A stretch of 59,226 nucleotides of DNA from an uncultured virus (IMG/VR IMGVR_UViG_3300031133_000403). Its lineage: Duplodnaviria; Heunggongvirae; Uroviricota; Caudoviricetes. A model generated the notes under the pieces. That model was not told the DNA's origin. It did no database searches and saw only the letters and a program-made list of their open reading frames with translations. The stretch lies in IMG/VR virus record IMGVR_UViG_3300031133_000403; one strand, 5' to 3'. Both the position numbers and the translations under genes were made by a program. The number at the start of each line of letters is the position of its first letter. Position 1 is the first letter of the stretch. This document shows, in pieces, positions 2,335 to 59,226 of the stretch.

Positions 2335-2811
2335 TCAGCTCCAGCACGTCGTTTCGACGTCGAGGACGATCTCGACATGGTCCTCGTGTTCGACGATCCG
2401 CTCCATGCGCATCGTCGACATCGCCGCGATGAATGCGTCTTCTGCATGTGCGATCTCGCCAAGCCGACGGCCCGGCATGGCCGCCATGACGATGTCGGGC
2501 AGATTCGCGAAGGCGTCGCGCTTCAGCATGAGGGATCGCCCCACGAAGCTCGGCAGTGATCGCGTCCCCGCACCCATCGGACCCATGAGCAGGGACGCGA
2601 TCACCCGCGGCGCGCGTCGCGGCCAGGCCAGTCGCACCATTCCCTCCGAGGTGTGCACGTAGGTCGTCTGCGTCACGTCCGGATCTCGTGACGACTGCAT
2701 GTGGCAGAGCGACATCTCGACCTGTCGGCGGTTCCGGTCCAGAAGCGCCGCCAAGGTCGTGCATACGCGGTCCAGTGGAGGCCGCGTCTCAGGGGAACTC
2801 AAACCCGCCAT
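2335..2811 (-). CDS. Expanded paralogue family member 1
   Basis: LPDIVMAAMPGRRLGEIAH. Confidence 0.7.
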   Translation of the reverse strand: MAGLSSPETRPPLDRVCTTLAALLDRNRRQVEMSLCHMQSSRDPDVTQTTYVHTSEGMVRLAWPRRAPRVIASLLMGPMGAGTRSLPSFVGRSLMLKRDAFANLPDIVMAAMPGRRLGEIAHAEDAFIAAMSTMRMERIVEHEDHVEIVLDVETTCWS

Positions 2812-3272
2812 CCCGCTGGAAGCGTGAATACCGGGTTGATGATCGGATATCCCGGCGCCTTCATCGGCACGTCCACCAGGATGGTCGCCATCTCGCCTCC
2901 GGTCATGCGCTCTATGACGATGTCCGCCAGCATTTCGAAGTCCGTCCCCGCGACGTGCATCACTTCCGAAAGGCGTCGCCCCTTCGCCGCGATCGCGACC
3001 GTCTCCGCCACGTCGTCGAGCAGCTGTATCGTCCGTCCGTAGAGGCTGGCCGTGTCAGACGTGAGCGTGAATCTGATGCATTCGCGCGGCTTGCCCTCGT
3101 ACTGCAGTTCGATCGGGCTTCCCCATTTCGACATGGACGCCTCGTGGTAGCCGGCGCGCGTGCTCCGTGCCATCGACGACATCTCGTCGAGTGCCTGCCG
3201 GAATTGCACCGGGATCGCCTCCAGATGCCGCACCAGAGGCATTGGAGCGGGGGCCAGTTCGATCGGCGTCAT
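2799..3272 (-). CDS. Expanded paralogue family member 2
   Basis: VAETVAIAAKGRRLSEVMH; start MTPIELAP after GAGGAAG. Confidence 0.7.
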   Translation of the reverse strand: MTPIELAPAPMPLVRHLEAIPVQFRQALDEMSSMARSTRAGYHEASMSKWGSPIELQYEGKPRECIRFTLTSDTASLYGRTIQLLDDVAETVAIAAKGRRLSEVMHVAGTDFEMLADIVIERMTGGEMATILVDVPMKAPGYPIINPVFTLPAGWRV

Positions 3273-3297
3273 TTCTTCTTCCTCGTGTAGCCCGCGA

Positions 3298-3795
3298 TCA
3301 GCCCGTGCCGACCGCCAGTTCCGCATCCCTGCGTTTGGCCGGCGGCGGCGGGTCCGCGGCCTTGCAGTACAGCGTCGCGTCGAATGCGACGACGGAGAGC
3401 ATGAACAGCAGATCGCTCATCGTGTGCGTAGGCACGGACAGCACCGCGAGGCACATCATGATCACGATGTTGGTCTGTCTCAGGCCTGCTTCCGTGACGC
3501 GGGCCTGCATGGCGCCCGTCCCGGACGACGACAGCGCGTCTATCGACCGCTTCTCGCGACCACGCAGGAACCCGAATATGAAGAAGAGGAGTGCGTAGCC
3601 GAACTGCGGGGATGTCCCGGCCTCGTCGTCCTCCCAGATCCCGACGACGAAGCTGGCGATCAGGATGGCGAGCGATACGTCCAGGCAGCAGTGTGCGAAC
3701 TGCCACTGGTCGGCGCTGCCGCGATCGCGGCTCCAGGCCATCAGGCGGTCGAACCGCAGCAGGACGGCCTCGTCTATGCGTTCCATCAGCGACAT
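3298..3795 (-). CDS. Hypothetical multi-pass membrane protein
   Basis: About four hydrophobic segments. Confidence 0.65.
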   Translation of the reverse strand: MSLMERIDEAVLLRFDRLMAWSRDRGSADQWQFAHCCLDVSLAILIASFVVGIWEDDEAGTSPQFGYALLFFIFGFLRGREKRSIDALSSSGTGAMQARVTEAGLRQTNIVIMMCLAVLSVPTHTMSDLLFMLSVVAFDATLYCKAADPPPPAKRRDAELAVGTG

Positions 3796-3841
3796 GTGAT
3801 CGTTCTAGGATGGTGGGCGACGCTTGTCTCGCGTCGCGATC

Positions 3842-4366
3842 TCATCGGCGCGCGGATGCGTGCGCGCTGGGATCCGCGCCACGCGCCGACGCCGTGTCCC
3901 TGATCGCGGCGATGGCCTCGTCGGCGTCGAGCGACGTCGGTTGCAGCTTCACCACGAGTACGTGCCTGATCCCGTCGCCGGTGCCGCTGGTCCTGGGTTC
4001 CGCCGATTCTATGACGAGACCCGGATGCGCCAGCCAGCCGCCGACTAGCCTTGCGAGCGGCGACCCCTCCAACGCGCCCGACACGGTGTCCGCGAGCATC
4101 AGACCTTCGATGGTGATGTTGGGCTTCCACATCCGGCATCCCGCCCTCACGTCCGCCCGTATCGTGATGTGCAGCCCGTCGACGGCAACGGCGGTGCTGT
4201 TGCTGCATGTGGCGGCCATGTCCCTGGCGAAATGCGTCACCAGATCGATGGCCGCCTGATCCGACACGAAGGCGTGCGCCGTCGTCAGCACTCCCAGCAG
4301 TTCGAAGCGCGCCTCGTCGGTCGTCCGCGACGGTGCCTCCATGACGGCGGCGTCGGAGGCGCTCAC
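3842..4366 (-). CDS. Expanded paralogue family member 3
   Basis: LADTVSGALEGSPLARLVGGWLAHP; GTG start overlaps the upstream TGA. Confidence 0.65.
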   Translation of the reverse strand: MSASDAAVMEAPSRTTDEARFELLGVLTTAHAFVSDQAAIDLVTHFARDMAATCSNSTAVAVDGLHITIRADVRAGCRMWKPNITIEGLMLADTVSGALEGSPLARLVGGWLAHPGLVIESAEPRTSGTGDGIRHVLVVKLQPTSLDADEAIAAIRDTASARGADPSAHASARR

Positions 4367-5104: not shown

Positions 5105-5305
5105 TCAGTCCCGCAAACCCGCCGCCCTTTCGCGCGCGGTGGCGACGATCGAGTCCGTGCATCCCCCGTCGGCCTCGATCCTTCCGACGCACTCCCAGCA
5201 GTCTCCGCCGCAGTCGGTCGACATGGCGTCTCCCGTCAGGTCCATCGCGCGGCCGCACATTGCGCATGGCTTGGGGCGTGCCGGAACGTCATGCCGTCTC
5301 GACAT
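5105..5305 (-). CDS. Small Cys-rich putative zinc-binding protein
   Basis: CAMC...DCGGDCWEC. Confidence 0.55.
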   Translation of the reverse strand: MSRRHDVPARPKPCAMCGRAMDLTGDAMSTDCGGDCWECVGRIEADGGCTDSIVATARERAAGLRD

Positions 5306-6527
5306 CGTCGTCCTTCCGGAGTTCGTCGACGAAGTCCGCGATGGACTTGGATGGAGCCCGCTCGACCACGATCTCGCCGCCTTTGGACCGTAGCATCCAA
5401 CCCGGCTTTCCGAACGGCTCGAGATCCAGGACCGTCTGCACCTCGAGCAGCGACAGGACTGCCGCCAGATGACCACGGTCCATCGACTTCAGCAACGGGA
5501 TCGCGGCATGCGACACCTCCCTGTCGGGATCCGCCTCTGCGATGCGCACGAGCTGCGCCGTGGCTTCCTCGTCCGTCGGCGCGTCGGCGACCGGGATCTG
5601 GAATCCGGCGCCCTCCGAAAATGCGCGCAGCCTGAGCGAGAGTTCGTCCCCCCGCACCGTGCGTATCCGAAGATGCCGCGCCCACGGTGCGTCCAGCACT
5701 TCGCCGAACGTCCTGCCCGCCAGCGAGGCTCTGATGGCCTCGGGCAGACTGGCGGACAGGGCGATCTCCGTTCCCGTGGCGTCGTCGTGCAGCGTGTGGC
5801 CGTCGTGCAGACGCACGGATGCGTGCACGTCGCGCCCACCGGGTCCCATGGTAAGGATGATGTTGGCGATCGTCTCGTCGCCCACGACCATTCCTGACAG
5901 CGTCAATGGTGCGATCCGCGTCGCATCCTCGTTGCGATGTCTCTCCACCCATGCTTCGATCGCCCGTCTGCCGTGAGCGCCCACCCGTGTCAGCATGGCC
6001 GCCAGATGCGCTCCGCAGGTGAATTCCGGCTGACCCTCCTCGACACGCGGGCAGTTTCTCACCAGGTACGGCAGGTGGTCCGCCAACGCCTCGTCCAGAG
6101 GCACGTCGGTGCGCAGCTTCCGGCTGATTGTCACGCGTCGCCCGTTCTTCATGGTGCGCGCCAGCACGTGCATGGTGTTCTTGTACTGGTCCATGACGAA
6201 GCGGAGCGACACGGTGGCCGGCACGTCGAGATGTTCGGACGCCCATCGGTTCACGTCCTCGTCGTCGAAGGTGTTGCGCATGTACGCCACCGTCCGCCCG
6301 GGCATCTCGGCCGCCGTGTCGAAGGGCATGAACGGGAATGCCGTCGTCAGATAGTTGTACTTCGACGAGCAGGTCAGCATCGCATGCTCGATCGCGTCGG
6401 AGGGCAGGTCGCCCAGTGGAGACAGCACTGTCACGGGACCCTTCGGCCTCGTGGCGGATTGCAGGTTCGCCGACGGGACTTCGAACCAGGTCAGGCCCCG
6501 TACGGTGCCGTGCACGAGTTTCGTCAT
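5289..6527 (-). CDS. Expanded paralogue family member 4, with C-terminal extension
   Basis: LPEAIRASLAGRTFGEVLDAPW; C-terminal extension resembles that of 10694..11941. Confidence 0.8.
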   Translation of the reverse strand: MTKLVHGTVRGLTWFEVPSANLQSATRPKGPVTVLSPLGDLPSDAIEHAMLTCSSKYNYLTTAFPFMPFDTAAEMPGRTVAYMRNTFDDEDVNRWASEHLDVPATVSLRFVMDQYKNTMHVLARTMKNGRRVTISRKLRTDVPLDEALADHLPYLVRNCPRVEEGQPEFTCGAHLAAMLTRVGAHGRRAIEAWVERHRNEDATRIAPLTLSGMVVGDETIANIILTMGPGGRDVHASVRLHDGHTLHDDATGTEIALSASLPEAIRASLAGRTFGEVLDAPWARHLRIRTVRGDELSLRLRAFSEGAGFQIPVADAPTDEEATAQLVRIAEADPDREVSHAAIPLLKSMDRGHLAAVLSLLEVQTVLDLEPFGKPGWMLRSKGGEIVVERAPSKSIADFVDELRKDDDVETA

Positions 6528-8016: not shown

Positions 8017-10557
8017 TCAGAGCGCGGGTTCCTGCAGCCCGCCGTGCCTGGTCTCGATGAAGTCCTCGTGTTCCGACATCCTGGCCACGTCGCGGGTCGA
8101 TTGCGTGCCGAGCAGGGCCCGCAGGCGGTCGGCCAGCGTGTCCGCCGTGCGTCGCATGCTGGTCTCCAGATCCGCGACGTGCGCATGCGTCGCCCGACGC
8201 CTGGCCGCGACGTACTCGTCCAGGAAGGTGGGTGCGTGACGCGTCACGATGGTCTCCACCTCGTCCGCGATGTCGCCGTCGACGGCGGCGGCGTCGACGG
8301 CGATCTCCGCGGCCAGTTCGAGACTGGCCAGCGATGCCACCGTCTCCGTCGTGCTGCTCACCCTTGCCGCATGCACGGCCTTGTCGAACTGCGTTGTTGA
8401 GATTCGCGGACGCGTGAACGCCGGGATCGCGGGGGAGCCACCGCCAGTCGCGTAAGGTCCGCCGATCGCGGGACGGTCGCCTGTATCGTCATCCTCCATC
8501 CGGCGGATGACCCGGTCGAGCACGCCGAGCCATATCGCCAGGAGACCCGACGTCAGCAAAAGCCACCAGGCCAGGGAGATGAGCGGTGGTTGATCCGAAA
8601 CCCAGACCCGCTCCGTCGCTACCGGCGCGGGTCTGGGGATGGTCTGCACTTGTACCGGCATTGGCGTCAGGACCTGCTCGGGTGGTGCCTGCGTCTGCAG
8701 CACGGACGCTCCGCGCTCCCTCACCATGTCGATGAACTCGGTGCGTTGCGCATTGGTCTGCGATCCCGCCAGGGCCACCATGGCGTCGGCGTTCCAATCG
8801 GGTCTTGCAGGGATCGTGCCGGTGAGAGCGAGACCGAAACCCGCGACTGCGGCCGCGAACGCCGTGTCGCCCTGCGGCGCCGAGGCGGTCGTCAGCTGGC
8901 CGACGGGCACGACGGTCTGGAGCAGACGCGACGTCGTGCCGTCGGGCTCCTTGTAGCGCAGCTTCACCGAGAGCGCCTCGTCTCCGGCGGAGGTGGCCGA
9001 AGGCATCGCCTGGCCGCCCGAGGTTTCGCTGCGCACGCGGTTCGCGGCGTATCGGCGCTTCGACGCCACGTCGACGACGCCCAGGCCGGGCGTCGGGAAG
9101 ACCTCGTAGATCGCGGTGACCTGGTGTCCGGAGCCGATCTCGCCGGCGTCCACCTCGTCGTCGTCGAACGAGCGCTCGGCGAGGCGCCTGTTCTGGTAGC
9201 CGACCAGTCTGTACGACGAGACGGCGGCCGGATTGAACTCGACCTGCGCCTTCACGTCCTTGGCGATCATGTGGATGCTCGACTCGAGTTCGTCGCGCAG
9301 GACCTTGCGCGCCTCGAGGTCGTCGTCGAGGAACGCCGCGCTGCCGTTGCCCGCGTCCGCCAGGGTCTCCATCAGGTTGTCGTTGAAGCGGCCGCCGACT
9401 CCGAGCGTCGTCAGGGTTACGCCGTCGTCGCGCTCCTTCTCGATGTAGGCCTTCAGCGATGCCGTGTCGCTCATGCCGACGTTGAAGTCGCCGTCGCTGG
9501 CGATCATGACGCGATTGATGCCGCCGGGCATGCGCGCGCTCCGGGCCTGGGCGTACGCCAGACGAAGCCCCTCGCCACCAGCCGTGCCTCCACCCGTCGA
9601 AAGCGACTGCAGCGCGGCTTTGATCCGGCCGCGGTTGGACGTCGATGCGAGGTGCACGGCGGCGCCGTCGGCGTACGTGACGATCGACACGCGGTCGCGC
9701 GGTCCGAGATGATCGACCATGTCCGAGAACGAGCGCTTCACGAGTTCGATGCGGTCGTCTCCCGCCATCGATCCGGACACGTCGACGAGCAGCACGATGT
9801 TGGCGGGCGGCCTGGCCCCCTTGGGAACGACGCGCCCGTTGAGCGCGACGCGCATCAGCAGCGACGAGCTGTTCCAGGGCGTCGTGGTCACGTCCGTCGT
9901 CACCGAGAACGGCGCGCCCACCGCGGGTGCCGCCGGAAGCGAATAGCGGAAGTAGTTGACCATCTCCTCCACGCGCACGGCGTCTGGCTGCGGCCTACCC
10001 CCTTCCAGGATGGTCTTGCGCAGATTGGAGTAGGACGACGTGTCGACGTCCGCGGCGAAGGTTGAAACGGGTTGCGACGCCACCTGGACGACGCCCGCCG
10101 AGCTCTCCGCGATGTTGGGCTGATCCTGCACCGTCGAGGGCGCAGGCGGCATCGCCATTGGTGGCGCGACGGCCTGCTGCATCGGAGCCGTCGGGGCGGA
10201 CGGTGCCGGCAGGGGTTGCATCGGCGGCTCGACGTCCATCGTTGTCGTATAGTCCGTGAGCGCATCCGCCGGCGCTTGCCCCGGATATCCTCCGCCGTCC
10301 GTTGCCGTCGCCTTTTGTTCGTAATGGCCCTTCATCCCAAACACGTTCGACAGCACACCGCTGGAGCGTCCAGTCTGCGTGGTGAGGGTTGACGTGACGG
10401 TAGTCCACGCTGCGTCCCCGTTCTGCTCATAGTGCTTCCCTGGAACGAGGGCCGGCGCCAACGCGCCGCCGATGATCAGCGCGCCCGCCGAGGCGGTCCC
10501 GACGATCGTCCACTTGACGCGTTTGCGCATCACCCGAATATCGTGCATGTCGTCCAT
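8017..10557 (-). CDS. YfbK-like von Willebrand factor A protein with N-terminal TM, second TM and C-terminal helical domain
   Basis: STFAADVDTSSY and VRVEEMVNYF (vWF_A N-terminal domain), MIDAS DVSGSM, ASDGDFNVG, AKDVKAQVEFNP...YRLVGY.NR...DAGEIGSGHQVTAIYE (YfbK C-terminal/DUF3520-like). Confidence 0.9.
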   Translation of the reverse strand: MDDMHDIRVMRKRVKWTIVGTASAGALIIGGALAPALVPGKHYEQNGDAAWTTVTSTLTTQTGRSSGVLSNVFGMKGHYEQKATATDGGGYPGQAPADALTDYTTTMDVEPPMQPLPAPSAPTAPMQQAVAPPMAMPPAPSTVQDQPNIAESSAGVVQVASQPVSTFAADVDTSSYSNLRKTILEGGRPQPDAVRVEEMVNYFRYSLPAAPAVGAPFSVTTDVTTTPWNSSSLLMRVALNGRVVPKGARPPANIVLLVDVSGSMAGDDRIELVKRSFSDMVDHLGPRDRVSIVTYADGAAVHLASTSNRGRIKAALQSLSTGGGTAGGEGLRLAYAQARSARMPGGINRVMIASDGDFNVGMSDTASLKAYIEKERDDGVTLTTLGVGGRFNDNLMETLADAGNGSAAFLDDDLEARKVLRDELESSIHMIAKDVKAQVEFNPAAVSSYRLVGYQNRRLAERSFDDDEVDAGEIGSGHQVTAIYEVFPTPGLGVVDVASKRRYAANRVRSETSGGQAMPSATSAGDEALSVKLRYKEPDGTTSRLLQTVVPVGQLTTASAPQGDTAFAAAVAGFGLALTGTIPARPDWNADAMVALAGSQTNAQRTEFIDMVRERGASVLQTQAPPEQVLTPMPVQVQTIPRPAPVATERVWVSDQPPLISLAWWLLLTSGLLAIWLGVLDRVIRRMEDDDTGDRPAIGGPYATGGGSPAIPAFTRPRISTTQFDKAVHAARVSSTTETVASLASLELAAEIAVDAAAVDGDIADEVETIVTRHAPTFLDEYVAARRRATHAHVADLETSMRRTADTLADRLRALLGTQSTRDVARMSEHEDFIETRHGGLQEPAL

Positions 10558-10668: not shown

Positions 10669-10694
10669 AAAAAGGGGTGGGCCTCCGCCCACCC
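10669..10694 (-). terminator. Intrinsic terminator
   Basis: Minus strand GGGTGGGC-GGAG-GCCCACCC-C-TTTTT directly at the TAG of the upstream gene. Confidence 0.85.
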
Positions 10695-11941
10695 TATCCG
10701 TTTTCCCCGAGCACCTTGTCCAGCACCTCCGACAGATCTCCCGTCGGGCGCGTCATGATCTGGATGGTCACACCGAAACGCCGCAGCTCCCATCCCGCCA
10801 TGCCGTGATCGCCGAGATCTACGGTGCCGTCGCGCTCCAGCACGAGAAGCACGGCGAGCAGCGTCGTCGGCGTCATCGCCTCCAGCAGCGGCCTGGCGTC
10901 CTCGTCGAACTGCGCGAGGCGTTTCTCGTCGACGACGCACCTCCGCAGATGCGCTGCCACCGTGACGGGGTCGTCGATGGCGTCCCGCGGCAGCGCCAAG
11001 GGCTCCTGCTTCGCGAATGCGCGTATCACGGCGTTCGGCCCGTCCTGCTTGGCGGTGCGGATGGTCAGTCCCTCGAGCCATGGGATGTCGACGATCTCGC
11101 GCACGTCCCGTCCGCGCAGCGCTGCCATGACCGTGTCCGGGAGGATTGTGTCGAGCGTGATCGTGATGCCGATCTCGTCGTCGACGATGCGGTGTCCGCC
11201 CTCCATTCTGATGTCGGTGAGAGCGGCGTTGGTGTTCGCCCCGGATTTCAGCGACATCTGGAGGATGCCGGCCGGCACCGTGAACATCTCCGGAGTGATG
11301 CTGAGCGTCTGCTTGCGCGTCTCGTCGTTGCGGACCAGCATGCGGTGCGCCCACCGCGAGGTGTGCTCCACGCCGAGCCTCGTCATGCCCGCCAGCAACG
11401 AATTGACGTGAGGCCAGCAGGTCACCGCCTCCGCTTCGCCCGGCTTCACCGGAGGACAGTTGCGCTGGAAGTACCTGAACACCGGCTTCAGCGCGTCCTC
11501 CAGCACCCGTTCCGATTCCACGCGGCGCTTGACTCTGGTGACGGTGCCGTTGCGCATCGTGGTCGCGTACGCGTTCACCTTCATGCCCGCATATTCGATC
11601 TCGAGGTCGATGTCGTCCGGCAGTCCGAGGTGCTCCTGGACCCACGCCTTGATGTCGAAGTCGTTGAAGCCGTACTGGTAGTAGGCCACCGGACTGTCCG
11701 GAAACGCCGCCGCCTCGTCGAACGGGCGAAAGCCGATCGCGCATGCCAGTGAATGGATTGAATCCTGCCTCTGCAGCCAGTTCGAGATCATCCGGTCGCC
11801 CGGCTCGTGTCCCTTGGCGAACAGCACCCGCAGAGGCCCCTTGCGGCCCCTCGTGTCCGCCGTCATCCGGTAGTCCTTCATGCCGGGCAGGTCGAGGTCG
11901 ATCCATCCGAGCCCCATGTGCTCGCCTCGCGCGATGATCAT
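10694..11941 (-). CDS. Expanded paralogue family member 5, with C-terminal extension
   Basis: LPDTVMAALRGRDVREIVDIPWLEGLTI. Confidence 0.8.
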   Translation of the reverse strand: MIIARGEHMGLGWIDLDLPGMKDYRMTADTRGRKGPLRVLFAKGHEPGDRMISNWLQRQDSIHSLACAIGFRPFDEAAAFPDSPVAYYQYGFNDFDIKAWVQEHLGLPDDIDLEIEYAGMKVNAYATTMRNGTVTRVKRRVESERVLEDALKPVFRYFQRNCPPVKPGEAEAVTCWPHVNSLLAGMTRLGVEHTSRWAHRMLVRNDETRKQTLSITPEMFTVPAGILQMSLKSGANTNAALTDIRMEGGHRIVDDEIGITITLDTILPDTVMAALRGRDVREIVDIPWLEGLTIRTAKQDGPNAVIRAFAKQEPLALPRDAIDDPVTVAAHLRRCVVDEKRLAQFDEDARPLLEAMTPTTLLAVLLVLERDGTVDLGDHGMAGWELRRFGVTIQIMTRPTGDLSEVLDKVLGENG

Positions 11942-48993: not shown

Positions 48994-48998
48994 CGCTC

Positions 48999-49026
48999 AT
49001 TATACGCTGCCGTTTGTGCAGTGCAA
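48999..49026 (-). promoter_or_regulatory. Sigma70-like promoter TTGCAC-N16-TATAAT
   Basis: Perfect -10 hexamer, rare in this GC-rich DNA, with a plausible -35. Confidence 0.65.
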
Positions 49027-49038
49027 CATGGATCTGTG

Positions 49039-49368: not shown

Positions 49369-49419
49369 GTGTAGGTCCTGTGGGGTGTCTTGCCGTGAGT
49401 CGTGCGACCGCTTCGGTGG

Positions 49420-49461
49420 TTGTAGGATGGATTGATGCGAGATCCGCATCCATCCTGAAAA
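49420..49461. promoter_or_regulatory. Palindromic arrangement of two box B copies
   Basis: AGGATGG...ATGCG-AGATC-CGCAT-CCATCCTGAAAA. Confidence 0.5.
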
Positions 49462-49480
49462 ATGTTTGGTTGTTCCAGGC

Positions 49481-49858
49481 TCAGCCCGGCGCCCTCGTCA
49501 TCCAGTCCGGCGTGTGACCCTCGGGATGCATCGCGCGGATCTGCGCGATCGCCATGCTGATTGTGCCCTCGGGATCCGGGCCGCCGGCCAGGAAGTGCCT
49601 CACGACGCCGAGCGCGGTCTCGGTGCGCGTGACGCGCTCCACGTCCTGTCGGCATTCGAGGATCACCGCCTTGTCGCCGGTGTTGGCCCATGAGTCAACC
49701 AGGCCCTCGCGCCAGATGCGCGCGTGTCGGCATGCGGTGGCCAGCAGATCCTTGTCGGCTTCGCTCAACGCGGGTGCGGTGTCGGCGAGTCTCGGCAGCA
49801 GATCGTGGTAGGCCTGGATGATCGCCTTGGTGCGATCGCGTATCGTATCGTCGCTCAT
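49481..49858 (-). CDS. Hypothetical protein
   Basis: Start MSDDTIRD after GAGGAG. Confidence 0.6.
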   Translation of the reverse strand: MSDDTIRDRTKAIIQAYHDLLPRLADTAPALSEADKDLLATACRHARIWREGLVDSWANTGDKAVILECRQDVERVTRTETALGVVRHFLAGGPDPEGTISMAIAQIRAMHPEGHTPDWMTRAPG

Positions 49859-49920
49859 CTCCTCGCGGTCGAGGATGGCGTCCTGCACGATCGAGCGCAG
49901 GACGCGTCTGGGGGGAAGGC

Positions 49921-50460
49921 TCACCGATTTTCTCCTTCGTGGTCGCATTCGCCGTCACGCCACCGCCGCACCCGTGGTCCGAACCGGGCAGGCAACGGAG
50001 CCTTCTTCTGGTAGGGGATCGTCTCGTGCCGTCCCTCGTCGCACGCCAGTCTCAGCGTCGTGCCCTTGGACGAGTGGTCCTGCACCGCCCGCCTGATGCG
50101 CAGGCCCGCCACCGGGGCTCCATGCACCACCTCCTCGATCAACCGGCCGCGCACTGCGACCGCCACGGTCTCGGGGATCGTCGCGCGGGGCATGCTGAGC
50201 GTGCCCCGCTTCCAGCGCGCACCCGAGGCGAACTCGATCGTCGTCACGATCTCCCGGTGCGTGGCGCTCCATTTGCGCTCCATCCGCATCGAGACGACGT
50301 CCGCGCGGGTGAAGTGTATCCCGCCCCAGGTCTGCGTCTCGGTCAGCCCGTACGGCTGCTGCGATCTGCAGTATCTCAGGAACCCGTCGAGCATGTTCCG
50401 CCCGGCCTGCGTCAGCGTCTCCATGACGCCGAGGCTGACCACGTCGGTCTGAAAGTCCAT
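49921..50460 (-). CDS. Expanded paralogue family member 24
   Basis: IPETVAVAVRGRLIEEVVHG. Confidence 0.75.
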   Translation of the reverse strand: MDFQTDVVSLGVMETLTQAGRNMLDGFLRYCRSQQPYGLTETQTWGGIHFTRADVVSMRMERKWSATHREIVTTIEFASGARWKRGTLSMPRATIPETVAVAVRGRLIEEVVHGAPVAGLRIRRAVQDHSSKGTTLRLACDEGRHETIPYQKKAPLPARFGPRVRRWRDGECDHEGENR

Positions 50461-50514
50461 TACCTTTTCACCCTTCCGACATCGTTCGAAAGGGCGTTCC
50501 GAGACGGTCCTCCC

Positions 50515-52521
50515 TTACTTCCCTCGTGCCGCCGTCGGCAGCGGACGACGGAACACGACGACCTCGCCCTCCTGCGGGGCGGGGGTCGGCGTCGGCGTCG
50601 TCGTGGCGCACGACCGCGTCTCGCTCACCGCGGGACGAGCCGTGGTGCATGCCGCGTCCGATGCCTTGGCGCCGTCGTTGCGGCGGCATTCGACCGTGAC
50701 GGTGCGCGTCTCCACGCCCGCCGTGCATTCCGACCATGCACCCGTGCCCGTCTGCGCCCAGTCGTAGGTGCAGGTGGACGTGTCGGTCACCCGTTCGCTG
50801 TCGGTCGGACGCGAAGCGGCGTCGCAGCTCCCGATCGGAGCGGCATCGCCGTTGGAGCGCGTGCACGTCACCTGGCGGGTGCGCGTGACGTCGCCGCACG
50901 CCGCAGGCGTCGTCCAATCGCCGGTGCTCCAGGCGAAGGTGCAGGTCGAGTAGTCGGTCGTCGCTTCGCTCGACGCCGGCTTGTCCGACCCGCACGAGGA
51001 ATCCCCTACCGTCTGTCCGTCGGAACGGATGCAGCTGACGGTCCGCGAATGCGTGGTCGCGCCGCACGCCGGCACCGCGGCGCCGAAGGCCCCCGGACGC
51101 CACTCGTATCCGCAGCCCGACGTCTGGTAGCTCTCGCGCGTCGTGTCGGGTTTCGTCTCGGCGCACTGCGCGTCGGCGACCGTGGTGCCCTCCGAGCGAC
51201 GGCACGTGACCGTGCGTGATTCCGTGGCCGCACCGCAGGTCGCCGTCGGGGCGCTCCAGTCGTTCACCGTCCACGCGAACGTGCACGTCGCGTAGCTCGG
51301 AGCGGCCTCCTGCATCACCGGCTTCGTGCCGGCCGCCGAGCAGGCTCCGTCGTCCACGCGCCGTCCGTCGGAACGGAAGCACCAGACGTCCCGGTACTTG
51401 ACGGATGGTCCGCACGCGGCGGCGGGTTCCGCATATTCGCCCGTCTGCCATTCGGCGCCGCATCCCGACGTCTGGTACGACGTCTGCGTGGATTCCGGCT
51501 TCGTCGTCGCCGAGCATGCGGCGTCCTGCGCCGTCGCGCCATCCGAGCGCAGGCAGGTCACGCTCCGCGCCTGCGTCGCGTTCCCGCAGGTGGTCGAGGG
51601 ATCCGTGAAGGCTCCGACCGTCCATGCGTGCGTGCACGCCGAATAGTCGTTGGTCTGCTGGGTCGTCGAGGGCATGGTGGAGACGGCGCACATGTCGTTG
51701 ACGACGAGCTGCCCGTCCGAGCGTCGGCACGACAGGGTCCGCGTCTGCGTGGTCGCGCCGCACGACGGCGTGACCGGGCTGAACGCCGACGGCTCCCACG
51801 TGTAGCCGCAACCCGCCGTCTGGTACGAGCTCTCGGTCGCCGACGGCTTGGGCGCGGCGCATGCGAAGTCCTGCAGCGTCGCGCCGTTGTCCGGATTGAC
51901 GCACGTGACGGGACGCGACCTCGTCGCGTCGCCGCAGCTCGCCGACCAGTCGCCGTATCCACCCGTGATCCATACCGGCGGCGAAGACCTGTCCGCCGTG
52001 CCGGTCAGTCCGGTGACCACGAACGCGCTCGGTGGTCCAAGATCGGTGACCGTGAAGGTCAGCGTGTTGATGCCCTCCTTGAATCCGCTGGCGATGACGA
52101 AGGGCGTCAGATTGGTGAAGGCGAGGTTCTCCGCGACCGGGGGGCCGCCGTTCAGGCTCACCGTGCCTTCGTTGTCGATGGCGAAGGAGCCGCTGATCCG
52201 GGCGGTCGCCACGTTGTATCCCGTCAGGTCGAACGTGAGCGTGTACTGGACCGTCTGGCGTCCCTCCTGGTAGGAGCCGTCGCCGGACTGTCCGATCCAC
52301 TGCGCGTCCCCCTGCACCGGATAGGCGCCGTTGTAGTATGTGATTGCGGGACCGCCGTTGACGCGGTAGTGCGCATCCACGCCACCACTTCCCGCATGAA
52401 GCCTGCCTGCGGGATCGAGACCCGTGTTGTACAGTCCGGGGATCGGATCCGCCCATGCGGCCGCAGGCACCAGCATCGTGGCGGCGGCGAGTGCGAGGCG
52501 GAACCTCTTGTAGATGGACAT
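50515..52521 (-). CDS. Secreted protein D: beta-sandwich head, 8 TSP1-like repeats and Pro/Thr linker
   Basis: Signal peptide; GLYNTG...YTLTFDLTG...AIDN...LNG...F..GINTLTFTV head; eight W/C repeats; tail EVVVFRRPL. Confidence 0.85.
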   Translation of the reverse strand: MSIYKRFRLALAAATMLVPAAAWADPIPGLYNTGLDPAGRLHAGSGGVDAHYRVNGGPAITYYNGAYPVQGDAQWIGQSGDGSYQEGRQTVQYTLTFDLTGYNVATARISGSFAIDNEGTVSLNGGPPVAENLAFTNLTPFVIASGFKEGINTLTFTVTDLGPPSAFVVTGLTGTADRSSPPVWITGGYGDWSASCGDATRSRPVTCVNPDNGATLQDFACAAPKPSATESSYQTAGCGYTWEPSAFSPVTPSCGATTQTRTLSCRRSDGQLVVNDMCAVSTMPSTTQQTNDYSACTHAWTVGAFTDPSTTCGNATQARSVTCLRSDGATAQDAACSATTKPESTQTSYQTSGCGAEWQTGEYAEPAAACGPSVKYRDVWCFRSDGRRVDDGACSAAGTKPVMQEAAPSYATCTFAWTVNDWSAPTATCGAATESRTVTCRRSEGTTVADAQCAETKPDTTRESYQTSGCGYEWRPGAFGAAVPACGATTHSRTVSCIRSDGQTVGDSSCGSDKPASSEATTDYSTCTFAWSTGDWTTPAACGDVTRTRQVTCTRSNGDAAPIGSCDAASRPTDSERVTDTSTCTYDWAQTGTGAWSECTAGVETRTVTVECRRNDGAKASDAACTTARPAVSETRSCATTTPTPTPAPQEGEVVVFRRPLPTAARGK

Positions 52522-52626: not shown

Positions 52627-53169
52627 TCAGTCGATCGATGCGATCTCCTGCGGACGCACCCGGGCATCCTCGCCGTAGGGCTGTTCGCCGATGACGTTGC
52701 CGGCCGGCCAGTATCGACACACCAGCACTTCGTCGCTGCGATTGGCGCGCACCGCGCATCCGACCTTTCGCGTACCCGCCCACACCATCTGCGTGTAGTG
52801 GCCCACCTTCTCGTAGTCGTCCTCCCACGACGACATTCGGGCCAGATCGCGCTTTTCGCCGCTCCATCCGCCGATCATCTGCCGAAGGCCGAACGCACCC
52901 TTGGTGCCCAGCCACAGGTTTTCGCCCTGGCCGTTGTCGTCGTCGTTCTCCTCGCCCCAGTGGACCAGGTCGTCGATGTCCGCGAGATGCTCCGCCCACT
53001 GCGCGGCGTCGCGCGCGAGCGAGGCGTCCCATTCGATCGGCGGCGATCCCACGCGTGCCCGCTCCTCGTCGTGCATCTGCACTATCGATCGTTCGAACGC
53101 CGCGGGATCCCTCATGACGGGAGCGGTCGTCGCGACGGCGGCGGCGGCCAGCAGGAGCGATGTTAGCAT
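52627..53169 (-). CDS. CAP/SCP (PR-1-like) domain secreted protein
   Basis: H...R.RVGSPPIEWDASLARDA..WA..L, GENL, GHYTQMVW..T.KVGCA, VCRYWPAGN. Confidence 0.92.
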   Translation of the reverse strand: MLTSLLLAAAAVATTAPVMRDPAAFERSIVQMHDEERARVGSPPIEWDASLARDAAQWAEHLADIDDLVHWGEENDDDNGQGENLWLGTKGAFGLRQMIGGWSGEKRDLARMSSWEDDYEKVGHYTQMVWAGTRKVGCAVRANRSDEVLVCRYWPAGNVIGEQPYGEDARVRPQEIASID

Positions 53170-53278
53170 TTCGACCTCGCGGCTTGCAGGATGAAGGAGT
53201 TCGATCTCCATCATGCGCGCGACAGGTTACCGGAAGGTTGACGCACGCCGGCGATCTTCGCGGTTCTTCTCGATGGAG

Positions 53279-53352
53279 TGGGTGCCCCGCCTGGGATCGA
53301 ACCAGGGTTTCGGGAGGCAAAGGCCTGCGTCTTACCATTAGACGACGGGGCA
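53279..53352 (-). tRNA. Atypical tRNA-Gln(UUG) with distorted anticodon arm
   Basis: Acceptor TGCCCCG/CGGGGCA, D-arm GTCT/AGAC, T-arm CCTGG-TTCGATC-CCAGG, encoded CCA; anticodon stem CAGGC/TCCCG has 2 mismatches; loop CT-TTG-CC. Confidence 0.75.
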
Positions 53353-53374
53353 ACGGCCAGATGTCCTGAAGTGT

Positions 53375-53449
53375 TGGATGCCCCGCTTGGACTCGAACCA
53401 AGGTTCTACGGCCCAGAACCGCATGTCTTACCAGCTAGACGAAGGGGCA
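53375..53449 (-). tRNA. tRNA-Gln(CUG)
   Basis: Cloverleaf; anticodon arm TGCGG-TT-CTG-GG-CCGTA; T-loop TTCGAGT; CCA; U7-C66 mismatch. Confidence 0.9.
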
Positions 53450-53499
53450 CAACTTCACGAACACGTGAAACAATAAGCTAAACTATGGCTAGTTTGTTT

Positions 53500-53573
53500 T
53501 GGATGCCCCGTGAGGATTCGAACCTCAATAAACGGAGTCAGAATCCGTTGTCTTACCATTAGACGACGGGGCA
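53500..53573 (-). tRNA. tRNA-Gln(CUG)
   Basis: Clean cloverleaf; ACGGA-TT-CTG-AC-TCCGT; TGAGG-TTCGAAT-CCTCA; CCA. Confidence 0.95.
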
Positions 53574-54166: not shown

Positions 54167-55183
54167 TCAGAGCCGCATCAGTCCCATCGCGTCCTCGATC
54201 TCGCGGACGGTCTCCTCGGTCCGGGCCGCCGCGACGCGCGTTCCCGTGCGCAGCACGTCCATCAGGTCGTCGGGTCGCGCCGCCGCCTCGATCCGTCTTT
54301 CCCGGATCGGCGCCAGCACGGTCTCCATGACGCCTGCGAGACGACGCTTGAGCGCCATGTCGCCCAGGCCGCCGCGCTGGTAGTGCTCCTTCAGCGCGGC
54401 CACCGCCTCGACGTCCGGATCGAATGCGTCGAGATGCGCGAACACCACGTTTCCTTCGATCCGGCCGGGGTCGGCCACCCTGAGGTGATCGGGATCGGTG
54501 TACATCGACATGACGGCCGTCTTCAGCTCGTCCGCCGTGAAGGCGAGGTCGATGGCGTTGCCCATGCTCTTGGACGCCTTGGCCTTTCCGTCGATGCCCG
54601 GAAGCCGTCCGGTGGACGACAGCATCGCCTTCGCCATGGGTAGCAGATCGTAGCCCGCGATGCGGTTCACGCGCGCCGCGATCTCGTTGCTCTGTTCGAT
54701 CATGGGAAGCTGATCCTCGCCGACCGGGACGACGGTCGCCTTGAACGCGGTGATGTCGGCGGCCTGGGCGGCGGGGTAGCACAGGAAGCCCGCGGGAAGA
54801 TCCCGCTGCATGCTCTTCTGCGCGATCTCGGCGCGCACGGTCGGATTGCGCTCGAGACGCGCGACCGTGACCAGGTTCAGGTACGTCATCGACAGGCGGG
54901 CGAGGGCCGGTGCGGCCGACTGCAGGAACATGGTGGTCCGCGAAGGATCGATGCCCACCGCGAGATAGTCCGCGAGCACCTCCAGCACGTTGGCCTTCAG
55001 TCTTCCCGGATCCTTGCCGTTGTCCGTCATCGCCTGCGTGTCGGCGAGCATGATGGTGAGATCGTGCGTGTCCTGCATCCCGACCCTGCTGCGCAGCGAG
55101 CCGGCATAGTGTCCCAGATGCAGTCGTCCCGTGGTGCGGTCGCCGGTGAGTGCGATCGGGCGGGTGGTGTCGGTGGTGTTCAT
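54167..55183 (-). CDS. trpS: Tryptophan--tRNA ligase (TrpRS II type)
   Basis: LTGDRTTGRLHLGHYAGSL, YPAAQAADI, VPVGEDQ, KASKS, MYTDP. Confidence 0.95.
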   Translation of the reverse strand: MNTTDTTRPIALTGDRTTGRLHLGHYAGSLRSRVGMQDTHDLTIMLADTQAMTDNGKDPGRLKANVLEVLADYLAVGIDPSRTTMFLQSAAPALARLSMTYLNLVTVARLERNPTVRAEIAQKSMQRDLPAGFLCYPAAQAADITAFKATVVPVGEDQLPMIEQSNEIAARVNRIAGYDLLPMAKAMLSSTGRLPGIDGKAKASKSMGNAIDLAFTADELKTAVMSMYTDPDHLRVADPGRIEGNVVFAHLDAFDPDVEAVAALKEHYQRGGLGDMALKRRLAGVMETVLAPIRERRIEAAARPDDLMDVLRTGTRVAAARTEETVREIEDAMGLMRL

Positions 55184-55962: not shown

Positions 55963-56742
55963 CTAGAAGCTCGGCGCGTGGTCCACCCGCTGGCGGGGCG
56001 GCTGATGGACGGCCAGCGCCCGTCGATCGGGTCGCGTGGATTCCAGCGTCAAGGATCCCATGTCGATTGGCGCGTGCGCCGCGTCCGTCTCGATCAGCGT
56101 GTTCCGCGTGCCGATCGGCGTGCTCACCCGCACGATGCGCAGTTCCAGCGGATCGAGCACCGGATGCGAGACCACGTCGCTGAGCTTGCGCCCCTCCATC
56201 GCCAGGCAGACCGCATTCGGAAGCGGGCGCCTGATGATCAGCGAACCGGCCGCGCGGATCTCGGGATCCCCGCTCACCCAGAAGGTGTCCGCCGCCATCG
56301 GCGCCATGACGCCCACCTTGCCGCCGTCGACCGCCACGATGGCCTCCTCGCGGCGTGCGGGCCCGGCACTCAGCCGGAACGACGGCAGCGGCTTGACGCG
56401 TGCGGTGCCGTCCGGAGCCGTGGCGGCCGCATGCGCCACGTAGATCAGCACGGCCGCGTCCATGCCGGTCGCGCGCAGCATGTCGAGCGCGACGGCGTCG
56501 ATCGTCGCCTTGGATGCCGACAGCGCCGCGATCAGTTCGGAGCTCACGTCCTCGTGATGCCCGTCGATCAGGTCGGACACCCGGTCCTGGATCATGTCGC
56601 GCGTGGCGCGCTCGTCGTCCGCGGCCTCTCCCAGCCCCAGGGGAGCCAGAGAGGCGGCGCCCGCCTTGAGATCCCCTGCGAACAGCGTGAGCAGGTCCGC
56701 GTGGAGATGATCGTCCATCCAGGACAGTTGATGCCGTGCCAT
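55963..56742 (-). CDS. Expanded paralogue family member 25
   Basis: LPNAVCLAMEGRKLSDVVSHPVL. Confidence 0.8.
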   Translation of the reverse strand: MARHQLSWMDDHLHADLLTLFAGDLKAGAASLAPLGLGEAADDERATRDMIQDRVSDLIDGHHEDVSSELIAALSASKATIDAVALDMLRATGMDAAVLIYVAHAAATAPDGTARVKPLPSFRLSAGPARREEAIVAVDGGKVGVMAPMAADTFWVSGDPEIRAAGSLIIRRPLPNAVCLAMEGRKLSDVVSHPVLDPLELRIVRVSTPIGTRNTLIETDAAHAPIDMGSLTLESTRPDRRALAVHQPPRQRVDHAPSF

Positions 56743-57695
56743 CAGATATCTCCGTTGCTTCCGCCGTTGCGGCGAGGTTTGACAGGTTTGCGCGCCGGCT
56801 GCTGGCGTGCGGGTTTGCGCGGTGTGGTGGCGGTCGTCGGAACCTTGGCAAGCGTGCGGCGCACGCCCTCCACCGGATCCGAGATCACGGGAGGCTTGCT
56901 CGACCTTGCCGCCGGCCGAGCCGCGGGCTTGGTCGGCTTGGGCGATCTGGCCTGCTTCGACTTGATGCACCATTTGCGGTCCGGGAGGTGACGCACCTCG
57001 AACGCGCCCGTGCGTGCCGCGAGGTCGCCCATCCTCTGTTCGCCGTACGATCGCGGATCAAAGTCGGCGGCGATGTTGGCGACGAGTCTCTGGATGGTCC
57101 GGATGGGCACCCAACCGTCCGCGTGGTCGCCGACGTGCTTCTCGTAGGCCCTCGATATGATGGGCGTCGCATCCGAGGCGGGGCGTATGCCGACGTCGCC
57201 CGGCAGCGCCAGCTCCGGTTCGTCGGCGGGCTCGGCATCGCGGGCCTGCTCGCGCGCCAGGTTCTCGACGAAGAAGAAGCGTCGGCACGACTGGCGGAAG
57301 CTCTCCGGCGCCTTCATTTCGCCCAGCCCGTAGACTTCCGCGCCGCTTTCGCGTAGACGCTGTGCCAGACGGGTGAAGTCGCTGTCCGAGGAAACGATGC
57401 AGAAGGCGTCGTAGACCCCCTGGTGCATCAAATCCATTGCGTCAATTACCAATGCTATGTCGCTGGCATTCTTGCCTTTTGTCCAGGCCATCGCCTGGAT
57501 GGGCACGAGAGCGTGGCGCGCCAGCTTCTCGTTCCAGCCCTTCAGACCCGGACTGGCGAAGTCCCCGTAGACGCGACGCACGATCGCTTCGCCCAGTTTC
57601 GCTATTTCGACGAAGATCGCCTCGGCGTGACGCGGGGATGCGTTGTCCGCGTCAATCAGCACCGCGATGCGTGTGCGCTGGCCTTCTGCTGGCAT
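56742..57695 (-). CDS. NYN domain protein with OST-HTH/LOTUS domain (LabA/DUF88-like)
   Basis: AVLIDADN, RRVYGD, GKNASDIALVIDAMD, IVSSDSDF, DFDPRSYG. Confidence 0.92.
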   Translation of the reverse strand: MPAEGQRTRIAVLIDADNASPRHAEAIFVEIAKLGEAIVRRVYGDFASPGLKGWNEKLARHALVPIQAMAWTKGKNASDIALVIDAMDLMHQGVYDAFCIVSSDSDFTRLAQRLRESGAEVYGLGEMKAPESFRQSCRRFFFVENLAREQARDAEPADEPELALPGDVGIRPASDATPIISRAYEKHVGDHADGWVPIRTIQRLVANIAADFDPRSYGEQRMGDLAARTGAFEVRHLPDRKWCIKSKQARSPKPTKPAARPAARSSKPPVISDPVEGVRRTLAKVPTTATTPRKPARQQPARKPVKPRRNGGSNGDI

Positions 57696-57836
57696 GGTGT
57701 TTCCTCTTGGTTGTCGGTGGCGTCCATGGACGCCGATACAATTCGCGACCATTTTCCGGATGACGGAAAAACTCAATCATGGCTATCCTGCCCCCGTGCT
57801 TCGGCAATCGTCGACACTTCAGGAGGATCACGCAGC

Positions 57837-58133
57837 ATGTCGCTTATCATCATGACGATGGCCATGGCCATGGGCCAGGCCGCCCAGCCATCCCCGCCCG
57901 CGCAACGCCCGCGCATGGACCGCAGACAGCGCATGGAGCGCATGTTCACCGAAGCCGACACGGATCGCAACGGTCAGGTCAGCAGGGCTGAGATGATGGC
58001 GGCCGGCGACAGGATGCACGCCGGCAGGGAGAAGCGAATGGGCATGCGTCGCGGCGGCATGCGTCCCGACGGGATGCGAGGCCCCGGCATGCGCGGCGCT
58101 GACATGGAAGGTCGCCCCCACCGCCCGCAGTGA
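57837..58133 (+). CDS. Small secreted EF-hand protein
   Basis: AGGAGG RBS; signal-like N-terminus; FTEADTDRNGQVSRAE. Confidence 0.8.
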   Translation: MSLIIMTMAMAMGQAAQPSPPAQRPRMDRRQRMERMFTEADTDRNGQVSRAEMMAAGDRMHAGREKRMGMRRGGMRPDGMRGPGMRGADMEGRPHRPQ

Positions 58134-58159
58134 GGAGGAATCATCCCGCGCGTCGTGGT

Positions 58160-58651
58160 TCAGACGTGCGGGATGTCCACCCATTGCGTATCCACGGCGA
58201 GCTGAATCGCCGAGGCGTTGCCGTGGACGCCACGTATGACGCATCCGGCGTCGCGCAGGGCCGGATGGTCCACCAGCACGGTCGCGTCCTGCCCTAGCAG
58301 GGCGTTCCGCACCGCATCGGGCAGCTTGCCTCCGACCTTCTTCACGACCAGCGTCGCCGTGTCCGGACGATGGCCGTACCACAGCAGCCGCTGATCCAGG
58401 CACATCGCCGTCAGCACGAGACGGTCGTCCACGACGTTCCCCGCGATGTAGCCGAGCGCCGGCGGGAACGCGATCTGCCTCGCCCTCTCCTGGTTGAGAT
58501 GCGCACCCGACGGAGCTGTCCGCTCCGACCTGAACGAATTCACGGCATGTCCCGTCTCGGCCTCCGACGCCTTCAGCGCCGTCATGATCTGCTCCATCGT
58601 CACGCCGGATGCGTCAAGCATCCCGGCGAACAGCCGTGCGGCCATCGTCAC
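58160..58651 (-). CDS. Expanded paralogue family member 26
   Basis: LPDAVRNALLGQDATVLVDHPAL; IAFPPALGYIAG. Confidence 0.75.
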   Translation of the reverse strand: MTMAARLFAGMLDASGVTMEQIMTALKASEAETGHAVNSFRSERTAPSGAHLNQERARQIAFPPALGYIAGNVVDDRLVLTAMCLDQRLLWYGHRPDTATLVVKKVGGKLPDAVRNALLGQDATVLVDHPALRDAGCVIRGVHGNASAIQLAVDTQWVDIPHV

Positions 58652-59226
58652 GCCGCGATCTCCGCGTTGCGGTCCTGGATGCGCGCGTCCCCGGCGAGAT
58701 CGGCTTTCCACCCCGCGCGCTCGTCCGCCCATTCCAGCGGATCGTCCACTCCGACGTAGCCGTATCCGGCATGGATCGTCACGTTGCCGTTCGTCAGGTC
58801 CACGGGAGCGGTTATGATGGCGTCGAGACTTCGTAGCACGGGATGATCGACGACATCGCCCAGCCGCATGCCCATCAGGCCGCCGGCGATGGACAGCGGC
58901 AGCGTGGTTCCGCGCATGACCAGCTTGGCCGTCGTGAACTCGCCGTACCACGTGACCCCGGGCGCCAGGCCCACGCCCGTCAACCGCACGTTGCCCATGC
59001 ACCAGACGCCCGCGATGTAGGGCAGGGCTTCCGGAAACGCGATGCGCTTCTTGTCCGTCATCATGCTGCCGGCCGCCGTGGGCGCGTCCACGTCCGAACG
59101 GAAGTTCCGCGGCATGCCGCCCGTGCTCCGGAAGGCGATGAACAGGGGATGGAGTATGTCGCGCAGCGACACGCCCGCGTGGTCGGCCAGCGACAAGAGG
59201 ATCTCGGGGAGTTGCACCGTCTTCAC
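58648..59226 (-). CDS. Expanded paralogue family member 27 (start may lie at or beyond the right edge)
   Basis: LPLSIAGGLMGMRLGDVVDHPVL; IAFPEALPYIAG. Confidence 0.75.
   Translation of the reverse strand: MKTVQLPEILLSLADHAGVSLRDILHPLFIAFRSTGGMPRNFRSDVDAPTAAGSMMTDKKRIAFPEALPYIAGVWCMGNVRLTGVGLAPGVTWYGEFTTAKLVMRGTTLPLSIAGGLMGMRLGDVVDHPVLRSLDAIITAPVDLTNGNVTIHAGYGYVGVDDPLEWADERAGWKADLAGDARIQDRNAEIAA

Follow-up and report, generated by a model that had tools for sequence, protein, structure and literature searches.

The window analyzed here is a 59,226-nucleotide stretch of DNA from an uncultured virus assigned to the Caudoviricetes (IMG/VR record IMGVR_UViG_3300031133_000403). It carries a family of 27 genes, all on the minus strand, that share one protein domain, referred to below as the module. 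With gene starts taken from database gene calls, the members are 126 - 586 amino acids (aa) long and together occupy 21,897 bp, or 37% of the window. The initial annotation, made from the sequence alone, had listed 27 minus-strand open reading frames (ORFs) of 155 - 470 aa covering about 21.6 kb. The count is matched by 26 confident members and one borderline member and the total length agrees, but the range of sizes is wider than had been given.

Identification of the family

A regular expression for the shared motif matched 16 minus-strand ORFs. A hidden Markov model (HMM) built from the window only, seeded on 12 of these ORFs and iterated over the six-frame ORFs of the window at an independent E value (i-E) below 1e-3, converged on 25 domains, every one of them on the minus strand; the plus strand reached E 0.38 at best. 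The stretch 26746 - 27075 was borderline for this HMM (E 0.0098). With a profile widened by outside homologs, 26 of 26 domains at E<1e-3 were on the minus strand, the best plus-strand score was 0.11, and one copy was gained at 18908 - 19279 (E 2e-13). Both profiles taken together give 26 members at E<1e-3 which, with the borderline one, make up the 27.

The initial annotation had called for the alignments to be set against shuffled GC-rich sequences, and the family stands clear of such controls. Among 2640 minus-strand ORFs that had been residue-shuffled or reversed, no E was better than 0.021, whereas 25 of 25 members were regained by leave-one-out profiles, with E values from 1e-20 to 1.4e-4. 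The family of 27 genes sharing one protein domain is real.

The copy at 18908 - 19279 was overlooked at first because the ORF listed there, 840 aa long, for the most part reads out of frame through a gene for a thrombospondin type 1 repeat (TSP1) protein. This ORF of the mechanical list (18896 - 21418, minus strand) is a high-G+C artefact: only its last ~182 codons belong to a real gene, and the frame plot places the remainder over the TSP1 gene (19498 - 21528) in a different frame.

Individual family members

The genes are described in map order, each with the positions of its domain and, in brackets, the E value of the domain followed by that of its leave-one-out profile. The first, 2335 - 2811, starts at 2811 in the ORF list or at 2715 in the database gene call and has its domain at 2344 - 2727 (3e-25; 1.6e-6). 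It is followed by 2799 - 3326 (175 aa; domain 2856 - 3206; 1.3e-15; 1.8e-6), the outside ortholog of which, P0065, is 85% identical, and by 3842 - 4342 (166 aa; domain 3914 - 4360; 2.6e-23; 8.4e-6). Two longer proteins, 5289 - 6527 (412 aa; domain 5613 - 5957; 1.5e-17; 1.7e-8) and 10694 - 11941 (415 aa; domain 11000 - 11353; 7.2e-22; 4.4e-13), have a common N terminus (BLAST E 1.6e-26), and in them the domain is followed by ~107 and ~101 residues, respectively. Next to the latter is 11952 - 12752 (266 aa; domain 12021 - 12353; 6.5e-21; 2.2e-10).

The member of ~182 aa at 18896 - 19444, delimited from its translation and start and from the frame plot, contains the copy found by the widened profile (18908 - 19279; E 2.1e-13 with that profile). 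Three genes follow closely upon one another: 22398 - 23144 (248 aa; domain 22482 - 22817; 1.6e-15; 3.7e-6), the weakest of the confident members at 23168 - 23779 (203 aa; domain 23216 - 23539; 9.3e-9; 1.4e-4), and 23776 - 24318 (180 aa; domain 23872 - 24234; 3.7e-10; 3.8e-5). The gene at 26707 - 27399 (~230 aa; supported by the frame plot) is a probable divergent member, its domain-like stretch being the borderline one at 26746 - 27075 (E 0.0098). Here GD replaces GR and the motif reads IPAAIMLAAGDQPLDAVMTG; the stretch was not regained by the widened profile. Beside it are 27438 - 28112 (224 aa; domain 27471 - 27884; 2.2e-22; 1.9e-9) and the longest member, 28450 - 30210 (586 aa; domain 28489 - 28911; 5.1e-27; 3.7e-12), which has an outside ortholog, P0021, at 77% identity.

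In the central part of the window, 34533 - 35474 (313 aa; domain 34572 - 35000; 1.8e-31; 9.2e-16) overlaps by 4 bp with 35471 - 35941 (156 aa; domain 35480 - 35785; 2.6e-18; 2.1e-7). The next two, 38088 - 39485 (465 aa; domain 38136 - 38531; 1.3e-19; 4.5e-11) and 39502 - 40830 (442 aa; domain 39559 - 39942; 6.2e-21; 2e-11), have orthologs P0015 (49% identity) and P0082 (42%). The 300-aa member 42343 - 43245 begins with TTG (domain 42442 - 42822; 1.7e-18; 3.2e-6) and is adjacent to 43242 - 44552 (436 aa; domain 43287 - 43709; 1.7e-23; 6.3e-12; ortholog P0102, 48%), the protein that was modeled in full length (pLDDT 90).

Four tandem genes begin with 46041 - 46631 (196 aa; domain 46065 - 46415; 4.7e-17; 1.8e-9) and continue with 46628 - 47524 (298 aa; domain 46673 - 47083; 1.4e-28; 2.1e-8), 47521 - 48432 (303 aa; domain 47551 - 47949, also modeled; 1.2e-32; 1e-20) and 48437 - 48910 (157 aa; domain 48497 - 48829; 2.1e-17; 1.1e-6). 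Further along are 49921 - 50460 (179 aa; domain 50029 - 50400; 2.5e-29; 3.3e-13) and 55963 - 56742 (259 aa; domain 56068 - 56469; 2.5e-22; 3e-9); a protein identical to the latter, P0153, is recorded from a 1,270,031-bp contig. The last two members are 58160 - 58651 (163 aa; domain 58175 - 58411; 5.4e-13; 6e-6) and 58648 - 59226, which is cut by the end of the window (domain 58759 - 59001; 1.8e-13; 4.5e-8).

Family genes adjoin each other at 11 junctions, six of which are 4-bp overlaps. These overlaps, together with the AGGAG-type Shine-Dalgarno motifs found before many starts in the window, give the arrays an operon-like, translationally coupled layout and make it likely that their products are made together.

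Sequence and predicted fold of the module

The shared core is β-rich, about 75 - 100 residues long, and has the signature LP[DE]TVxxALxGRPLxDVVDHP. Across 188 aligned domains, near-invariance is limited to G71 (99%) and P62 (97%); R72 follows with 79%, and W49, L61, T64, V65, A68, L74, V78, H80 and P81 are each conserved at 60 - 70%. Such a pattern is that of a conserved fold with a binding surface rather than a conserved active site, and the module, which is without a catalytic signature across the aligned domains, is read as non-catalytic. Its pI varies among the members from 4.2 to 11.3.

An AlphaFold model of the isolated domain of 47521 - 48432 has a pLDDT of 85 - 95 or more in the core, and a model of the whole 436-aa protein 43242 - 44552 has a mean pLDDT of 90 and a pTM of 0.79. 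The two independent predictions agree on one fold, consisting of several short strands, a helix that bears LPxTVxxAL, a Gly-Arg turn and a β-hairpin. The short helix that had been noticed upstream of the motif is present as a helical lead-in, but it is less conserved than the core and modeled with lower confidence (pLDDT 58 - 65); the shared domain had at first been suggested to span 120 - 150 aa.

None of the 27 members has a stretch resembling a signal peptide or a transmembrane segment in a Kyte-Doolittle window scan, and the proteins are predicted to be soluble. The same scan flags the neighboring TSP1, CAP, VWA and 1090-aa proteins described below, which serve as positive examples.

The domain is new to curated libraries. 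In Pfam, none of 15 full-length members reached a family, and the 25 domain segments, searched at E≤10, gave just four single-member matches (best E 0.069) with nothing consistent among them. For the 149 profile matches listed, 18 of which are the window's own proteins, one weak sub-cutoff Pfam match, to DUF7118, was seen. No match was obtained for eight members in NCBIfam or for 14 in PADLOC, none of the 27 fell below E 0.02 in PHROGs, and the best E of the profile against PDB sequences was 0.13. The motif thus remains as unassignable to a known family as the initial annotation had found it. The structure prediction and Foldseek search that it had proposed yielded the fold common to both models and no significant match to a known structure: nothing at E≤1e-3 was found for the domain model in the PDB or BFVD, or for the full-length model in the PDB, and the ESM Atlas gave sub-threshold matches or none. 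An AbrB-like or cradle-loop barrel, suggested by the look of the motif, was dropped, being unsupported by every sequence or fold search.

Variable N-termini and age of the expansion

In 126 of 162 domains, no more than 40 residues separate the module from the C terminus, and two proteins have two copies of it. The regions that precede it are diverse. Their clusters 0, 4, 5, 8 and 9 are related (hhalign probability 91 - 99%) and form one superfamily that includes the 430 - 470 aa members, whereas clusters 1, 2, 3, 6 and 7 are related neither to that superfamily nor to one another (hhalign <35%); 30 of 109 N-termini are singletons. By sequence comparison, at least six unrelated N-terminal types are joined to the module. 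Either the architecture is modular or the N-termini have diverged past recognition. The picture of a constant module near the C terminus, attached to variable N-terminal parts, is thus borne out. The N-termini had been called mostly unrelated, which holds for the six types, but not for the superfamily or for the five paralog pairs with N-terminal similarity in BLAST. Their designation as effectors found no support, since no Pfam family was reached by the 15 full-length members and Pfam scans recognized no enzymatic or toxin domain in the family.

The expansion had been thought to be old, and comparison with outside sequences supports this. A full-length outside homolog exists for 14 members of the window, and 12 of the 14 are closer to it (37 - 85% identity) than to their best paralog in the window (at most 34%). 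The duplications are therefore older than the separation of the related genomes, and each copy has been kept. In five of seven ortholog groups the conservation of the module exceeds that of the N-terminus, and in the other two the parts are about equally conserved; the comparison of ortholog groups indicates that the N-termini are also under purifying selection.

Long DNA repeats are absent from the family, as had been observed. Repeats of at least 30 nt are located in the genes for the TSP1 proteins and the 1090-aa repeat protein, and the sole family-to-family repeat among the 20 largest of 29 repeat families is 42 nt long with 74% identity. A separate similarity of 54 nt (80% identity) between 28084 - 28137 and 30478 - 30531 runs across the starts of two minus-strand genes that both begin with MMRL. 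It may represent a duplicated 5' end or a common regulatory and start region.

Occurrence outside the window

An exhaustive profile search found 1246 metagenome cluster representatives at E≤1e-3, 39 of them at E≤1e-10. Among the 150 listed of these 1246 matches, 131 have sources other than the window, and the remaining 19 are proteins of the window itself. The checked sources of the listed relatives are all metagenomic, and the proteins are unnamed or called 'hypothetical'. Relatives are found on contigs of 277,940, 310,393, 87,143 and 73,360 bp. Different members are recorded on contigs of equal size, and these genomes probably carry several copies each. One word-index search returned 11 orthologs; others returned almost only window proteins.

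Other collections gave little. Tblastn searches of phages and plasmids, with members and with the 1090-aa neighbor as queries, found no match, and no relative came up when the genome_contigs collection was scanned for a pattern from one alignment (A4); another scan with the same alignment returned one metagenome locus of 1204 bp. A DNA pattern matched the window once and IMG/VR once, but the IMG/VR locus (L084) proved to be a chance match (profile E 0.0075), and two marginal matches among the 401 genomes of the order of G001 were not upheld by the widened profile.

At the DNA level, the window recurs at 95 - 100% identity in metagenome runs from leaf surfaces and plants, which are filed under 16 study codes. 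In the region 42000 - 50500, 20 - 28 of the 30 bins are covered by contigs of three metatranscriptome libraries. This is a weak hint that the genes are expressed, because DNA can be present in RNA libraries.

Neighboring genes and the nature of the genome

The G+C content is 65 - 68% throughout the window, and the frame plot assigns the coding signal almost wholly to the minus strand. About a fifth of the called genes have any Pfam domain. Those with recognizable functions include a bacterial-type tyrosyl-tRNA synthetase (TyrRS; 25057 - 26529, minus strand), which has an N-terminal extension of ~88 residues ahead of the Pfam match, a bacterial-type tryptophanyl-tRNA synthetase (TrpRS; 54167 - 55183, minus strand) and three tandem tRNA-Gln genes, two with CTG and one with TTG anticodons (53279 - 53573, minus strand). 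The two synthetases and the tRNA triplet lie within 30 kb amid genes without assigned functions, as in huge phages.

A bacterial-type nicotinate phosphoribosyltransferase (NAPRTase) of the PncB type (14216 - 15613) and a NUDIX hydrolase (12769 - 13224; PADLOC candidate family PDC-S07, E 3.6e-10), both on the minus strand and ~1 kb apart, suggest an NAD salvage pair. The nearest relatives of the NAPRTase are from Brevundimonas (51 - 54% identity); others are from Beijerinckiaceae and Granulosicoccus. They hint at an alphaproteobacterial host, and at no more than that because the relatives come from a pattern-biased sample.

Several neighbors appear to be secreted, adhesin-like proteins. Three minus-strand genes (16071 - 17990, 19498 - 21528 and 50515 - 52521) encode proteins with up to seven TSP1 stretches; a proprotein-convertase P domain is also present in two of the three, and the N-termini of two are signal-like. 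The matching model, TSP1_ADAMTS, takes its name from the animal ADAMTS proteins. A protein of 1090 aa (30542 - 33814, minus strand) combines a Sec-type signal peptide with about eight repeats of ~130 aa that contain Cys, and it matched nothing in Pfam, PHROGs, NCBIfam or the phage collection. Other minus-strand genes encode an 846-aa VWA/YfbK_C protein with a hydrophobic N-terminus (8017 - 10557), an M23 peptidase (21560 - 22375), a CAP-domain protein (52627 - 53214) and a protein with NYN and OST-HTH/LOTUS domains (56742 - 57776). Two HNH endonuclease genes (1849 - 2259 and 36087 - 36947) are on the plus strand, opposite to nearly all the rest, like the homing endonucleases of large phages.

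Overall, the window looks like an accessory region of a huge phage. The genome from which it comes may be a phage, another giant element, a concatemer assembly artefact or an uncatalogued bacterium. A Pandoravirus-like eukaryotic virus had been considered in view of the high GC content, the pair of TyrRS and TrpRS and the TSP1 repeats. It was dropped because of the Shine-Dalgarno starts, the 4-bp overlaps and the bacterial type of TyrRS, TrpRS and PncB.

Possible function of the module

It is proposed tentatively that the module is a common docking or assembly handle; the initial annotation had likewise suggested docking or targeting, to a host target, virion, compartment or secretion apparatus. 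Present on many individually conserved proteins, the module would tie each of them to one partner or to one multi-subunit structure that a very large phage-like element would build. The module would then bind something common, and the genome would belong to a mobile element such as a phage. In favor of the proposal are the lack of a catalytic signature, the one fold of both models, the modular architecture, the conservation of the module relative to the N-termini, the age and upkeep of the copies, their likely joint production, the solubility of the proteins, the phage-like context, the scans of the genome_contigs collection and of the 401 genomes that gave no confirmed relative, and a precedent in giant phages. 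Among the weak rows of two exhaustive VIA fold searches, the C-terminal module repeatedly drew phage neck, tail-completion, hub and Hcp-type proteins, but they are a hint only because all of the fold matches are below the noise level.

A number of observations weigh against this proposal. In these fold searches the domain reached a Z score of 4.6 at best and the full-length protein one of 6.2, the noise level being about 7 - 8. No partner of the module was identified, and several members (126 - 180 aa) are little more than the domain itself, so that a handle with cargo fits them poorly. The semi-conserved polar residues R72, D76, D79 and H80 could equally mark a site for a ligand or nucleic acid. 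Virion, capsid, portal and terminase genes were not found in the window. A tblastn search of 50,697 phage records with one member found nothing, nor did scans of IMG/VR with single proteins, alignment A4 and a DNA pattern reveal relatives. Proteins identical to those of the window are on record on the contig of 1,270,031 bp. The largest phage genome found named in print is 841 kbp (title of bioRxiv 10.1101/2025.01.14.633092), and the genome may be cellular because the contig exceeds that size.

The closest analogy, and the best precedent for a docking or assembly handle, is offered by the large paralog families inside the heads of giant phages. Family B of the head proteins of phage SPN3US has 20 members, and 2 - 20 are found among related phages (PMC5694885). 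Like the inner-body paralogs of phiKZ, these are large sets of mostly tandem, diverged paralogs in a very large phage-type genome. They also resemble the window family, which has 27 members in 59 kb, in that the copy number varies among relatives and that they have been assigned no known enzymatic function (PMC5694885). There are differences, however. The known capsid-targeting sequences of these head proteins are N-terminal propeptides, whereas the module is C-terminal, and the genome of the window may not be that of a phage. One profile of the family (A2) had no match at E≤1 in the whole SPN3US record, an empty result that in itself shows nothing.

A rather unlikely alternative is that the members are adaptors for a host hub. 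The module would bind one conserved host protein, such as a protease, a polymerase or a component of the ribosome, and the N-termini would recruit or block host targets. The constant C-terminal module on variable N-termini, the predicted soluble and cytoplasmic nature of the proteins, and the phage-like context with auxiliary genes in the style of host takeover are in favor of such adaptors. The turnover of the family, however, is less than would be expected of families engaged in an arms race, given the 12 paralogs kept at 37 - 85% identity and the purifying selection on the N-termini. A known host partner is also lacking, and no Pfam family or known binding repeat was seen in the 15 full-length members.

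Viral families of this general design exist. The ankyrin/PRANC proteins of poxviruses and the multigene families (MGF) of African swine fever virus (ASFV) are lineage-specific expansions that occupy a large share of the viral genome, and the former have a constant C-terminal adaptor and a variable N-terminal part. The window family is like both in its large share of the DNA and like the poxvirus proteins in its architecture. It differs from them in its prokaryotic translation signals, in the absence of any sequence or fold relation, and in consisting of old, individually conserved paralogs.

Less probable still is a lineage-specific family of an uncatalogued bacterium with a small genome, for instance an immunity-like or regulatory array in which the conserved domain is the functional unit. 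The 1,270,031-bp contig with its identical proteins would suit such an organism, as would the recurrence of the DNA in leaf-surface and plant metagenomes and in three metatranscriptome libraries, the neighboring genes for Sec-type secreted, adhesin-like proteins, and the occurrence of several short, single-domain members in tandem. Against it, only about a fifth of the called genes have any Pfam domain, and over 59 kb the genes lie almost wholly on one strand with HNH genes opposite. The clustering of TyrRS, TrpRS, the tRNA-Gln triplet and NAD salvage as in huge phages, and the relatives on contigs of 277,940 and 310,393 bp, also argue against it. Finally, toxin-like partner genes are absent from the window, and the genome_contigs pattern scan showed no relatives.

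It is very unlikely that the module is an export or injection signal, recognized by a secretion or injection machine that would take the N-termini as cargo. The model for such a system is the XVIPCD, the VirD4-binding domain of effectors of the Xanthomonas-type type IV secretion system (T4SS). The XVIPCD is likewise a folded C-terminal handle of about 100 - 120 residues with conserved motifs and unrelated N-termini, and its logic of many paralogs is similar (PMC8740702). As expected of substrates secreted in one step, the family members have no Sec signal. However, the XVIPCD consists of two helices on a three-stranded sheet and a Gln-rich tail (PMC8740702), whereas the window core is predicted to have strands, a helix and a hairpin. 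The tail is missing from the family: the Q fraction of the last 30 residues in the 27 members has a median of 0.03 and a maximum of 0.07. No VirD4, T4SS or other secretion-system gene is recognizable in the window. The N-termini of the window family are not recognizable as toxins and match no toxin or enzyme family. The XVIPCD structure is not among the listed fold matches of the module, an absence that is non-excluding.

Routing by a small C-terminal module is known from other bacterial systems. The C-terminal domain of type IX secretion system (T9SS) cargo and the dockerin each route or anchor dozens of proteins per genome. T9SS cargo requires an N-terminal Sec signal, and the dockerin is a calcium-binding helical repeat. 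The logic of a C-terminal module on variable proteins is the same in the window family, but none of its 27 members has a Sec signal, its predicted fold is β-rich, unlike the dockerin, and neither domain was matched in Pfam.

That the module binds nucleic acid or a ligand and that the family comprises regulators or sensors is highly improbable: the conserved Gly-Arg after a short helix, the semi-conserved D/D/H cluster and the two α-β3-α modules of the full-length model, which weakly resemble tandem dsRNA-binding domains (Foldseek E 3e-3, probability 0.2 - 0.4, non-significant), are opposed by the inconsistent charge of the domain (pI 4.2 - 11.3), the lack of a match to any DNA- or RNA-binding family and the fact that 27 regulators within 59 kb would be unusual.

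Implications

Lineage-specific expansions of paralogs are already known in large viral genomes, and in this respect the family is ordinary. Nevertheless, with 1246 cluster representatives, no entry in curated libraries and a 37% share of the window, it is well suited to be defined as a new domain. The genome, too, is worth resolving: a phage-type element far beyond the described sizes and an uncatalogued bacterium with a small genome would both be of interest.

The proposal of a docking or assembly handle can be extended, with considerable doubt, to a loading tag. Such a tag would belong to giant phage-like elements (0.28 - 1.27 Mb) of leaf-surface Alphaproteobacteria that form a new clade and in which dozens of tagged proteins would be packed into, or assembled onto, one structure built by the element. 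If this were true, the element of 1.27 Mb would surpass every phage genome named in print so far. If the module is a handle for docking or loading, tagging a single domain could reveal both its partner and the way in which the element organizes dozens of its proteins.

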